64,000 bases of DNA from Candidatus Altimarinota bacterium (GTDB taxonomy: Bacteria > Patescibacteriota > Gracilibacteria > CAIRYL01 > GCA-016699755): NCBI GenBank assembly GCA_963664295.1, contig OY760935.1:992001-1056000 (forward strand). The letters run 5' to 3'. Made by a program: the position numbers and the translations under genes. The notes under the pieces are model-generated. The model was given only the letters and a program-made list of their open reading frames with translations, was not told where the DNA came from and searched no databases. Every line of letters starts with the position of its first letter. The stretch's first letter is position 1. Shown here in pieces: positions 19,901 through 44,006 of the stretch.

Positions 19901-21097
19901 TATGAATTATCAGCCGGAGTGCGAGCTAAAGGTTGGCAAGCAGGTGTACAGACCAGACACACAGATATTCAAGACAGCATTAAGGCTAACTTGGGGATTA
20001 ATCTTACTGAAAAAGCTCAACTTAATATTGAAGGTGGAGCAACAAATATAACAGACGATATGGTTATGGAGCCTGATAATTATTATGGTCAAATTGGCGT
20101 AAGCATTCCTTTGGGTGGCTCTAAAGAAAAGTCAGTAAAACCAGTTGTAGCCTCAGCGATAGACAGCTTAAGACAAACAGTTTTTACTCACTTAGGACAT
20201 ATTGATCCAAAGCCAAAAGCGACTATGGCTATTAAAAAAACAGAAAAAGCAAATGAGGGTCCAGGGGTAATGATTATTGGTGCAAACAGAACGGTTCCAG
20301 GAAAAGCAGAAGAGTACATTGCTTCAGCATATGATTATGAGGGAGACAAGATTGTAAGTTATGATTTTAAAATTGTTAGCTCTACAGGTTTTGATGGTGG
20401 CAATATCGCTTATTGGCAACATTTTGTAGGTGAGCCACACAAAGTGAGTCTTAAATTCTCAACTCCTGACTCAGGAAATGGTAGTGCTACATTGCAATGT
20501 GTTGTCACTGATGAATATGGTAATTCAACAACAGAAACACTTTTAATTACAATTTCAGAAGGACAAAATCCAAGAAATCCTAGTAGCAACCCAAATGTTA
20601 ATCCTAAAGACGACACAGACCCAGGAAACCCTGGTAGTGACCCAAATGTTACTCCAAATGATCCAAGCAACACAGGTGATCCTAGTATTCCACCAGTAAC
20701 TCCTGGAGATGGACAAGACACAGAAAATCCTAGCACTCCACCAGTAACTCCTGGAGATGGACAAGACACAGAAAATCCTAGCACTCCACCAGTAGGCCCT
20801 GGAGATGGACAAGACACAGAAAATCCTAGCACTCCACCAGTAGGCCCTGGAGATGGACAAGACACAGAAAATCCTAGCACTCCACCAGTAACTCCTGGAG
20901 ATGGACAAGACACAGAAAATCCTAGCACTCCACCAGTAACTCCTGGAGATGGACAAGATTCAGGTGATCCTAGCACTCCACCAGTAACTCCTGGAGATGG
21001 ACAAGACACAGAAAATCCTAGCACTCCACCAGTAGGCCCTGGAGATCCAAACGATCCAAATCAACCAACTACACCACCATTTACACCTTTTGAATAA
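16994..21097 (+). CDS. Large surface protein: coiled coil, TM, two LysM-like domains, beta-strand-rich barrel-like region, Ig/PKD-like domain, Pro-rich repeats
   Basis: 1367 aa; LysM-like 'IKEGDTLGQIA...IQPGW' and 'VKKGDYLFKM...LEPGW'; amphipathic beta strands ending 'YYGQIGVSIPLG'; 'LQCVVTDEYGNST'. Confidence 0.75.
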   Translation: MKNTANKRPVDSWESAGTQKKQENLRSIEGGISSEMATAEITVERERAKTSLGVERQLAVLPSLVEDKTASLTDQQKKLAQRYCFVSNKAQESDEKLEQAEARLLEAEQKLTNNSLPAKYQKQVKAELENAQRAYEKAKKAQEKDSERLQKLLNQNGFTTLVSDLDLDNPKNKQAIAGEVNRSNVHKIKAKEGVLSVAMGKLSLATLTPLNAGEIAHAIRYCVPRDKRSRMLNNVYLYNSRALAVCELHEEIHELDKTIIPLQKAMEEVGVNDPKYAEYEDRLVKANKKSEVLNERLLKLLKKGDRLHGAIFSALKKVGVEIEQKEESEASIKASQQGILNSFKGLETKLKAGNVSAKKMEADLQPIMTHLLLLRGVTQNAKDGKLNLKAKEQKAFEILGDKLPIIEDALNSILDTLEESEQAQKTKKGFLSKVKGFLRKPKAKKVAKVAMLTMATLSVNSGIITDAVSDFFSELNDLDLGDSDFAKALQNAFAGLADGLDNIGDSALASESTTLSSGVKAEQIKEGDTLGQIADKMSVDNWQNLQVSEDGGQTWTSAEKINEYAIQPGWLVATDGAQQSAPIISNDYQTETVKKGDYLFKMLDRMPGANSLDDLEISMNGGVSWTRYGDFNNPNYLEPGWQVRTATQNISTQTASFTETHIDPPQNTEQIEVVENSGEIKLRASASVKEANLPQARPQAKEIIRADIGTATKVDSATIIVPGENDDIPGQMERRLDPVNMPQTERTFFNGNVLVGGGVSYFNGQVGSHGEAYAGGDHFAIGAEAGYASDNAYASPSAGYFSDNFDLAVKAMFAKGKLKSALSLPNGDHVFETEHTKTGVGSHLGVNLGSGPVKRAEVTLGYEKTSSEDAGSASFRADNGDLFKYDVKAEGATEKFGKVNLISNPFQLGGGWTANSNVGVLHESLNFDEPTGYKLTDNGEDFTTPVVGASVESSGKTQWKFAGEMGANYYELSAGVRAKGWQAGVQTRHTDIQDSIKANLGINLTEKAQLNIEGGATNITDDMVMEPDNYYGQIGVSIPLGGSKEKSVKPVVASAIDSLRQTVFTHLGHIDPKPKATMAIKKTEKANEGPGVMIIGANRTVPGKAEEYIASAYDYEGDKIVSYDFKIVSSTGFDGGNIAYWQHFVGEPHKVSLKFSTPDSGNGSATLQCVVTDEYGNSTTETLLITISEGQNPRNPSSNPNVNPKDDTDPGNPGSDPNVTPNDPSNTGDPSIPPVTPGDGQDTENPSTPPVTPGDGQDTENPSTPPVGPGDGQDTENPSTPPVGPGDGQDTENPSTPPVTPGDGQDTENPSTPPVTPGDGQDSGDPSTPPVTPGDGQDTENPSTPPVGPGDPNDPNQPTTPPFTPFE
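20681..21046 (+). repeat. Coding 48-bp tandem repeat (~7.6 copies; PSTPPV[T/G]PGDGQDTEN)
   Basis: Units start at 20681, 20729, 20777, 20825, 20873, 20921, 20969, 21017. Confidence 0.95.
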
Positions 21098-42802: not shown

Positions 42803-42880
42803 GGCGACTGTAGCTCAGTTGGTTAGAGCGCCGGATTGTGGCTCCGGAGGTCGTGGGTTCGAACCCCATCAGTCGCCCCA
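42803..42880 (+). tRNA. tRNA-His(GTG) with G-1 and encoded CCA
   Basis: G-GCGACTG...CAGTCGC-C-CCA; anticodon arm CCGGA-TTGTGGC-TCCGG; GGTTCGAA. Confidence 0.97.
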
Positions 42881-43273
42881 TGAATATCTTTAAACATGTG
42901 CCACAATCAAGATTGCGTCTTCGCGGAGCTAGTGGTTATCTACCCCCATCAGTCGCCCCATGAATATCTTTAAACATGTGCCACAATCAAGATTGCGTCT
43001 TCGCGGAGCTAGTGGTTATCTACCCCCATCAGTCGCCCCATGAATATCTTTAAACATGTGCCACAATCAAGATTGCGTCTTCGCGGAGCTAGTGGTTATC
43101 TACCCCCATCAGTCGCCCCATGAATATCTTTAAACATGTGCCACAATCAAGATTGCGTCTTCGCGGAGCTAGTGGTTATCTACCCCCATCAGTCGCCCCA
43201 TGAATATCTTTAAACATGTGCCACAATCAAGATTGCGTCTTCGCGGAGCTAGTGGTTATCTACCCCCATCAGT
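42864..43273 (+). repeat. Five identical 80-bp tandem repeats plus a 10-bp partial, each beginning with the last 17 nt of tRNA-His
   Basis: Units at 42864, 42944, 43024, 43104, 43184, partial at 43264; unit = CCCCATCAGTCGCCCCATGAATATCTTTAAACATGTGCCACAATCAAGATTGCGTCTTCGCGGAGCTAGTGGTTATCTAC. Confidence 0.97.
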
Positions 43274-43342: not shown

Positions 43343-43741
43343 ATGAACAGCAAATCCCCTAACTTAAGAGTGTTATTAGTTTGCAAACAAGAAGAAGAGG
43401 ATTGCTTAAAAACAGAACAAAAAGAACAAGAAACAATAAACCCAATTGAAAAAATAATTGAACAAACACAAGAAATAATGCGAAGTAATACAAAAAGTTT
43501 TCCGCTTGAAATTGGACTTCATTTACACAAAGCAGGGAATGGTTGTTCTGCACAAGATGAACAAAAAATGTTGGAAGAAATTGTCAAATCTCCAGAAAAT
43601 TTAATTTTAATGACAAGAGCAGTAAAATTATCAGAACCTTGGAAAAGTTTGATGAAAAAAAATGTTTTTATGCTTGATGAACTAAGCCCAGTTCATATTA
43701 TGATTATGATTAAGGGCTATCTTGCCTCCATAAGACTTTAA
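43343..43741 (+). CDS. Hypothetical protein
   Basis: 132-aa ORF between two tRNA genes; TTGCAC-17-TAAACT upstream. Confidence 0.6.
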   Translation: MNSKSPNLRVLLVCKQEEEDCLKTEQKEQETINPIEKIIEQTQEIMRSNTKSFPLEIGLHLHKAGNGCSAQDEQKMLEEIVKSPENLILMTRAVKLSEPWKSLMKKNVFMLDELSPVHIMIMIKGYLASIRL

Positions 43742-43899: not shown

Positions 43900-44006
43900 T
43901 GTCATTCTGAACTTGATTCAGAATCTTTTGGTGACATTATTGTCAGCAATTTATTTTATAGCTTAAATAATGTCCAAGGAGATTGCGGGTCAAGCCCGCA
44001 ATGACA
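43900..44006. repeat. REP/REPIN-like palindromic element
   Basis: TGTCATTCTGAACTTGATTCAGAATCT ... AGATTGCGGGTCAAGCCCGCAATGACA: two hairpins in inverted orientation with TGTCATT/AATGACA ends. Confidence 0.7.

Follow-up and report, generated by a model that had tools for sequence, protein, structure and literature searches.

Each unit of the tandem array behind the tRNA-His(GUG) gene carries two copies of its own tRNA, one forward and damaged, the other short and in mirror orientation. Units of this kind come and go between relatives, and their antisense arm follows the neighbouring tRNA, not the unit's own sense arm. The reading we favour, to which we give about an even chance, is that the unit is a module without genes, derived from the tRNA it follows and probably a small mobile DNA element, with the mirror arm guiding it to the tRNA gene; it is preferred because the arm tracks the adjoining tRNA, rather than the anticodon or its own hairpin, and because units turn over between genomes. 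The complementary blocks, from which the original prediction of an "anti-tRNA" trailer was drawn, are real, but they are not a His-specific anti-anticodon device.

The tRNA-His locus and the anatomy of its units

The host genome is a complete single contig (1.215 Mb, 33.5% GC, 37 tRNAs, rated 100%-complete), and the stretch of it that was analysed, 64,000 nucleotides long, is referred to here as the window. The array consists of 5.1 copies of an 80-bp unit at 100% identity, directly 3' of tRNA-His, and its fifth unit breaks off 10 nt into the tRNA-end repeat (Table 1). Contig depth over the unit and its flank is 104 and 23.4 in run X1, possibly the source sample (a ratio of 4.4), and 13.1 and 2.8 in a seawater run of another study (4.7), with no differing letters listed within the unit in the read data of the two runs; the array is therefore real, common to both samples and not an assembly artefact. 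Contig depth in the same two runs shows no excess of the kind that free circular copies of the unit would give.

Table 1. Features of the tRNA-His locus, in window positions
Feature	Position	Strand	Basis
tRNA-His(GUG), with encoded G-1 and CCA; sole tRNA-His of the genome	42803..42880	+	ARAGORN 42804-42880; Rfam RF00005 71.4 bits
TAGCTC, tRNA positions 8-13, complementary to GAGCTA of the unit	42811..42816	+	sequence comparison
tRNA positions 30-38, anticodon loop and two stem bases; target of the antisense arm	42834..42842	+	sequence comparison
Array of five 80-bp units, starting at 42881, 42961, 43041, 43121 and 43201	42881..43273	+	tandem-repeat call, read depth
Unit 1, AT-rich tail	42881..42899	+	sequence
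Unit 1, antisense (mirror) arm GCCACAATC, exact complement of tRNA positions 30-38	42900..42908	+	sequence comparison
Unit 1, AA turn between antisense and sense arms; AA also in the tRNA-Met sibling	42909..42910	+	sequence
Unit 1, degenerate sense copy of tRNA positions 30-59, T-loop rewritten; GAGCTA at 42926-42931	42911..42943	+	alignment
Unit 1, exact 17-bp copy of the tRNA 3' end (42864-42880), containing CAGTCGCC and CCA	42944..42960	+	alignment

Two blocks of the unit had been described as antisense to the tRNA, and the sequence confirms both as exact reverse complements, GCCACAATC of the anticodon loop region and GAGCTA of positions 8-13. Both pairs of blocks are indeed 17 nt apart with poor pairing between them, only 3 of 17 positions agreeing. 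The single antiparallel register that was read from this equal spacing has no structural meaning, since identity is 3/17 and this part of the RNA forms separate hairpins in the predicted fold; for the same 3/17 identity between the blocks, a decayed full inverted copy of the tRNA was rejected as their source. The sequence CAGTCGCC, said to be carried by each unit, occurs in units 1-4, where it belongs to the exact copy of the tRNA's own 3' end and is therefore bound to complement the 5' acceptor strand. The small internal hairpins are marginal, the isolated unit being predicted to fold weakly (-9.2 kcal/mol, z +1.4).

At all three sites where the sense arm of the unit departs from the tRNA, the antisense arm agrees with the tRNA. 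The swaps in the sense copy, CC to TCGC in the anticodon stem and GTC to CTA in the variable loop, recur in the tRNA-Met sibling, an 83-bp unit at genome position 419414 that is likewise built of an antisense arm over the anticodon arm, AA and a sense copy. Among 251 genomes the 15-nt motif TCGCGRAGCTAGTRG has an exact match only in the His and Met units, and in these two both of its R positions track the cognate tRNA. As the CTA swap is common to the Met unit, GAGCTA is made up of a tRNA-sense GAG and a scaffold CTA; at the corresponding site the Met unit reads AAGCTA, which has no match to positions 8-13 of that tRNA. TAGCTC is present at positions 8-13 in 20 of the 37 tRNAs of the genome, and the CTA swap may first have been selected to pair with the common U8-A9-G10.

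Some further features of the window are recorded here. Each unit junction (42896-42973 and the later equivalents) is spanned by an ORF of 25 codons, three of them for His, of which one is the anti-anticodon block in frame; no ribosome-binding site is seen by eye, and the ORF may be due to chance. An ORF of unknown kind encoding 132 aa lies between the array and tRNA-Ile (43343-43741, + strand), and a 48-bp tandem repeat, probably coding, is found at 20679-21046 (7.7 copies, 93% match).

Predicted pairing between the unit and tRNA-His

In dinucleotide shuffles of the 63-nt spacer, an antisense match of at least 9 nt arises in 100 of 20000 (p=0.005), and a 9-mer together with an in-register 6-mer in none of 20000. 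Among the 37 tRNAs of the genome the best antisense partner of the spacer is tRNA-His, with 9 nt vs at most 7 for any other. The fold predicted for the tRNA with one unit has an energy of -53.3 kcal/mol, compared with -40.6 when the cloverleaf is forced, and its pairing probabilities are about 1 between the arm and the anticodon and about 0.9 between GAGCTA and positions 8-13.

Refolding of pre-tRNA-His by the trailer, as originally proposed, is predicted beyond shuffles and beyond other tRNAs when the whole unit is considered. In secondary-structure predictions that ignore tertiary contacts and tRNA modifications, the gain is -13.1 kcal/mol in cis, against -5.3+-2.5 in shuffles (reached by 0 of 100), and -13.7 in trans, a value reached by 2 of 300 shuffles and by none of the 36 other tRNAs given the His spacer and their own end. 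Both blocks contribute to the gain in trans, of which -7.3 is left when the 9-mer is scrambled and -9.8 when the 6-mer is. The proposal fails for the 63-nt spacer alone, which binds tRNA-His no better than shuffles do (193 of 1000) and for which tRNA-His ranks 7 of 37 tRNAs.

These energies, together with the lack of any terminator-like site found between tRNA-His and the array, are what an action at the RNA level would draw on. The co-transcribed trailer, or 80-nt CCA-ended unit RNAs released from it by cleavage, would in that case pair with tRNA-His at three places (the 5' strand of the acceptor, positions 8-13 and the anticodon loop) and thereby control its maturation, availability or nuclease exposure; yet the tRNA is complete 20 nt before the arm is transcribed, and the folding model, besides being blind to tertiary structure and modifications, gives an incomplete cloverleaf even for tRNA-His alone. 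The accessible parts of PMC8144298 describe E. coli rRNA-linked members of the tRNA-linked repeats that become discrete RNAs, a precedent for this role, but the unit of the His array is missing from close relatives, and significant predicted refolding of the own tRNA is seen in only one of the nine short-unit rows of the genome, that of His. In the RNA runs screened, the share of sequence words present never exceeded 0.04. We regard an RNA-level role as unlikely, and retain it because the predicted refolding is real and specific. Should the refolding truly take place, the His unit would be an anti-tRNA acting in cis.

Other tRNA-His genes were surveyed by scanning metagenomes for those followed by a short 3' repeat, which gave 44 loci, 38 of them distinct and 37 with an intact loop. 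Their trailers are mostly broken sense copies, many with a swapped-in hairpin, and none of the 37 has at least 7 antisense nt over the anticodon (one has 6). The complementary block is therefore kept in 0/37 other His trailers, which are possibly not homologues of the unit, and this too counts against an RNA-level role.

Units at other tRNA genes and in other genomes

End-repeat units stand at 20 of the 37 tRNAs of the genome (16 downstream, 8 upstream, 4 both). Downstream units end in the 3' end of their own tRNA and upstream units begin with its 5' end; in the upstream units the order of parts is mirrored, running from the exact end through sense copy and turn to the antisense arm. Of 31 unit segments, 18 find their best antisense partner in the cognate tRNA (4 of these as a tie), compared with 2 of 34 control flanks taken from unit-free tRNAs, a count for which the windows were chosen after the anatomy was known and in which the units are not independent. 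The longest arms measure 17 nt (Met), 16 (Val), 13 (Pro) and 12 (two Ser upstream units). Which region the arm covers, T-arm/variable loop, D-arm or anticodon, is set by where the sense copy begins or ends; the expectation that repeats behind other tRNAs covary with the cognate anticodon accordingly holds for the own tRNA and not for the anticodon specifically. An anticodon-specific role is not supported, given this range of arm positions and the eight other short-unit rows, in which no significant refolding is predicted.

Where sense arm and tRNA mismatch, the antisense arm follows the tRNA at 82 sites, its own sense arm at 30 and neither at 33 (20 rows). When six rows are dropped, namely Met-i 175, Lys-ttt, Glu, Phe (wrong hairpin seeded), one duplicate Met 5' row and the out-of-register Ala-ggc row of the related genome G004, the tally by hand sum is 73:17:27, with 3:0:0 for His. 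Six long units at Gly, Ser (three), Arg and Gln tRNAs have 64-69 of 70 scaffold bases in common, and the end repeats of the siblings are 17-22 bp and longer. In many long units terminator-like hairpins stand between the tRNA and the arms, which would fit a DNA-level role better than an RNA-level one. A TAAT(T/A)A-like turn is conserved in long units of two genera. The TATAAT-like turn was also considered as a promoter and set aside, as the -35 spacing varies among units (by eye) and promoter matches in the His region are at chance level.

In the source genome (G000), the array behind tRNA-Lys(CUU) is mixed: its four units (154, 276, 154 and 211 bp; G000:C1:135200-136264, L044) belong to three kinds, and one of them repeats 56 nt of the tRNA. 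A hairpin-rich trailer that has no tRNA-end repeat is common to tRNA-Leu(GAG) at 97554, tRNA-Met at 844360 and tRNA-Thr at 1133475, and a related trailer stands after the Lys, Gly, Phe and Ser arrays.

The distribution among relatives is patchy. A 3' repeat is absent from 28 of 29 related tRNA-His loci, the exception being a tRNA-His in G053 with a different 100-nt unit. G004, which belongs to the same family and another genus, has a syntenic tRNA-His that carries no unit; its 33 tRNAs have five downstream and one upstream end-repeat units and three more cognate antisense trailers, and some of its units sit at tRNAs that are empty in the source genome. In the complete genome G002, units were found at 0 of the 39 tRNAs examined. 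One unit of G004, behind tRNA-Ala(GGC) (C29:24400-25400, L301), has a 16-nt arm that fits the tRNA it sits behind, whereas its sense arm and end resemble tRNA-Ala(UGC); to judge by its sequence, this unit is possibly a snapshot of retargeting.

Searches for homologues of the His unit by class, phylum, virus and motif found none outside this species. The exact unit pattern occurs in 0 of 400 class genomes. With one mismatch allowed, the scaffold motif is found in 36 of 250 other genomes, which is below the reversed control, and a tRNA is present at 5 of the 29 non-self loci inspected, none with a unit. A T-loop-plus-scaffold pattern matches one of 400 phylum genomes, at a site that is not a tRNA end, and 55 viral loci at which the tRNA scan found no tRNA.

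Under the favoured reading of a small mobile DNA element, the tRNA gene would become single-stranded during replication or transcription, allowing the mirror arm to pair with the tRNA-sense strand and to hold the unit beside the matching point of the gene. A nick followed by strand transfer, or a copying step, carried out by some enzyme, would then add a unit; the exact end repeat would keep one tRNA intact upon insertion, and slippage or recombination on the 17-bp repeat would give rise to tandem copies. The predicted refolding of pre-tRNA-His would be a side effect of the same complementarity. This reading is supported by cognate-armed units at more than half of the tRNA genes (20/37), by mirror order on the two sides of the gene, by a scaffold common to different isotypes and by patchy presence; against it, a mobilising enzyme was not found in the genome, and contig depth gives no sign of surplus free circles. 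Homologous units do occur in another genus at the corresponding Met, Ala and Ser tRNA genes, so that vertical retention for a host function fits as well, and the scaffold identity among long units could have come from gene conversion among old units.

The missing enzyme would also be expected if the units were functionless debris, that is, if fold-back or template-switch had made an inverted and a direct copy that decayed and were amplified by slippage on the 17-bp repeat, and the perfect tandem copies, the last one incomplete, agree with such an origin. It is harder to reconcile with fixed swaps that the His and Met units share at matching tRNA positions, with the turn conserved across two genera, with antisense arms that are better preserved than the sense arms, and with the similarity of seven units to the E. 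coli tyrV repeat (z 3.2-7.9, in part via the common T-loop); we hold this origin to be rather improbable.

Profile searches of the genome gave no match to a Y1 transposase, IS110, a reverse transcriptase or a resolvase. PF01548 and PF01797 have no match in this 100%-complete genome, with 6 of 14 controls matched by each, and the PF04986 profile matched no control and is uninformative. The genome has one tyrosine recombinase, and the only PF00589 match, at genome position 1158017, is far from the array. This also bears on the proposal of a programmable guide, in which the arm and the sense end of a processed unit RNA would each pair with one strand of the tRNA gene, staggered, for a trans-acting RNA-guided recombinase or nickase. 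The units do combine a fixed scaffold with target-matched segments on both senses, and every unit ends in a tRNA-like processing end, but no IS110 or other partner gene was found, the unit RNA folds weakly, and the order of the arms in the IS110 bridge RNA is opposite to that in the units. We consider such a guide RNA very doubtful.

An 82-aa UPF0213-like GIY-YIG gene lies inside the upstream repeats of tRNA-Pro. Relatives of this gene are within 500 nt of a co-oriented tRNA in 62 of 74 cases, over 17 isotypes and several phyla, and have a CCGCC hairpin nearby in 41 of 74. A part for it as dedicated mobiliser of the arm-bearing units is not supported: 41 units of the GIY-YIG relatives are without antisense arms (longest at most 9 nt), and the gene does not track the units, G004 having units and no small GIY-YIG, and G002 a small GIY-YIG and no units.

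The tRNA-Pro locus (G000:C1:482718-483373, L047) has two 321-bp repeats, each with the tRNA 5' half and the GIY-YIG gene, the anticodon arm of the tRNA half being replaced by a TCCGCC hairpin. At another locus (L066), downstream of a GIY-YIG gene, a whole inverted pseudo-tRNA-Asn copy is accompanied by four upstream repeats, each of 108 bp, that derive from the 5' part of the tRNA. The source genome has a second small GIY-YIG gene (95 aa, G000:C1:622554-622841, L060). On either side of it are GTCATT...ATC palindromes, arranged in the manner of the NTS/SRM of Ssn nucleases; there are 85 such palindromes in the genome and 18 in a reversed control; two such motifs stand directly behind tRNA-Ile (window 43901-44005). 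NCBIfam has no family for either of the small GIY-YIG genes.

Taken together, this one 1.2-Mb genome is a natural series, with units at both ends of tRNA genes, common scaffolds and cognate arms, to which a relative with differing unit occupancy adds. The series allows a test of where the mirror arm acts, on the gene to target it or on the tRNA to regulate it. Should the arm prove to be a retargetable base-pairing guide, it would point to an unrecognised, integrase-free route of site-specific insertion at tRNA genes.

Comparison with known systems

Target choice by base pairing is known from the guide tetranucleotides of IS200/IS605, the folded attP of CTXphi and the bridge RNA of IS110. Such base-pair-guided mobile DNA, in which a fixed scaffold picks its target by pairing, serves as a working analogy; the His unit differs from IS110 and IS200/IS605 in that the genome has no matching enzyme and the target end is duplicated.

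For the cutting step, the small GIY-YIG (Ssn) nucleases, which according to the accessible parts of PMC11893778 cut ssDNA beside a hairpin repeat (NTS/SRM), are a precedent for hairpin-directed ssDNA cutting; the word tRNA has no occurrences in those parts. The likeness lies in a small GIY-YIG tied to repeated hairpin DNA, as in the tRNA-Pro upstream repeat of this genome. The His unit differs in having neither a small GIY-YIG gene nor the CCGCC/SRM hairpin of the GIY-YIG/pseudo-tRNA cassettes.

Integrative elements that target tRNA genes leave tDNA fragments at attL and attR (Islander; PMC4383910, in its accessible parts), and like them the locus has an intact tRNA, an end fragment displaced to the proper side, fragments of both the 3' and the 5' class, and a damaged terminal fragment. 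The His unit is distinguished by its 80 bp, compared with islands of 2 kb or more in the same parts of PMC4383910, by the lack of an integrase and by the extra antisense arm. An integrative element of this type was accordingly rejected, as there is no tyrosine integrase gene between the tRNA and the fragment and the unit is too short.

The closest likeness in layout is to the tRNA-linked repeats (TLRs) of E. coli, which the original prediction, in stating that no such system had been described, had overlooked. As far as the accessible parts of PMC8144298 go, TLRs have 18-19 bp of identity to the tRNA 3' end, 1-5 copies and no known function since 1978; the E. coli examples given there, citing Egan & Landy 1978 and Rudd 1999, are the tyrT/tyrV 178-bp repeats with rttR, lysQ, argV/Q/Z and rrA/B/F. 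The same parts make no mention of an antisense arm, and the mode of action of rttR is stated to be unknown in the portion of bioRxiv 2024.07.17.603846 consulted. In the E. coli genome sequence (NC_000913.3), the tyrV/tyrT and lysQ repeats carry a cognate antisense arm before a broken sense copy, a layout observed in these copies that the published TLR definition consulted does not include.

The His array shares with the E. coli TLRs 1-5 tandem non-coding units directly 3' of the tRNA (five in His), an exact copy of the tRNA 3' end that closes the unit, and the antisense arm before a broken sense copy. It differs in its shorter unit of 80 bp, which has no GC-rich hairpin insert, in the length of the end repeat, 17 bp rather than 18-19, and in an arm and sense copy that start at the anticodon arm rather than the T-arm; the mirror-ordered units upstream of tRNAs in this genome are a further difference. 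In sequence the His unit is unlike the three E. coli TLRs compared (z -0.7, 0.7 and -0.8), the seven long siblings being those that align to the tyrV unit. In Rfam searches of the locus and 20 sibling loci only tRNA passes, with no RtT; a weak Flavo-1 match in an Ala unit (29.9 bits, cut-off 42) was set aside. When the His stretch and a Gln unit were compared with E. coli genomes by blastn, tRNAs alone made up the best matches. A search of largely open-access literature found no report of units that enter at the anticodon, of mirror units upstream of tRNAs or of antisense arms matched to the cognate tRNA; prior mention is possible.

In its widest form, the idea would be that TLRs are a programmable gene-less mobile system, with a constant scaffold and an arm that is rewritten for each tRNA gene and guides insertion through base pairing from either gene end, and that the His guide also captures the anticodon and so doubles as a switch on the only tRNA-His; we think this unlikely. 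Judged from sequence and layout, the His array is best placed as a short, anticodon-entry variant of the tRNA-linked repeats, with which it shares the layout only.
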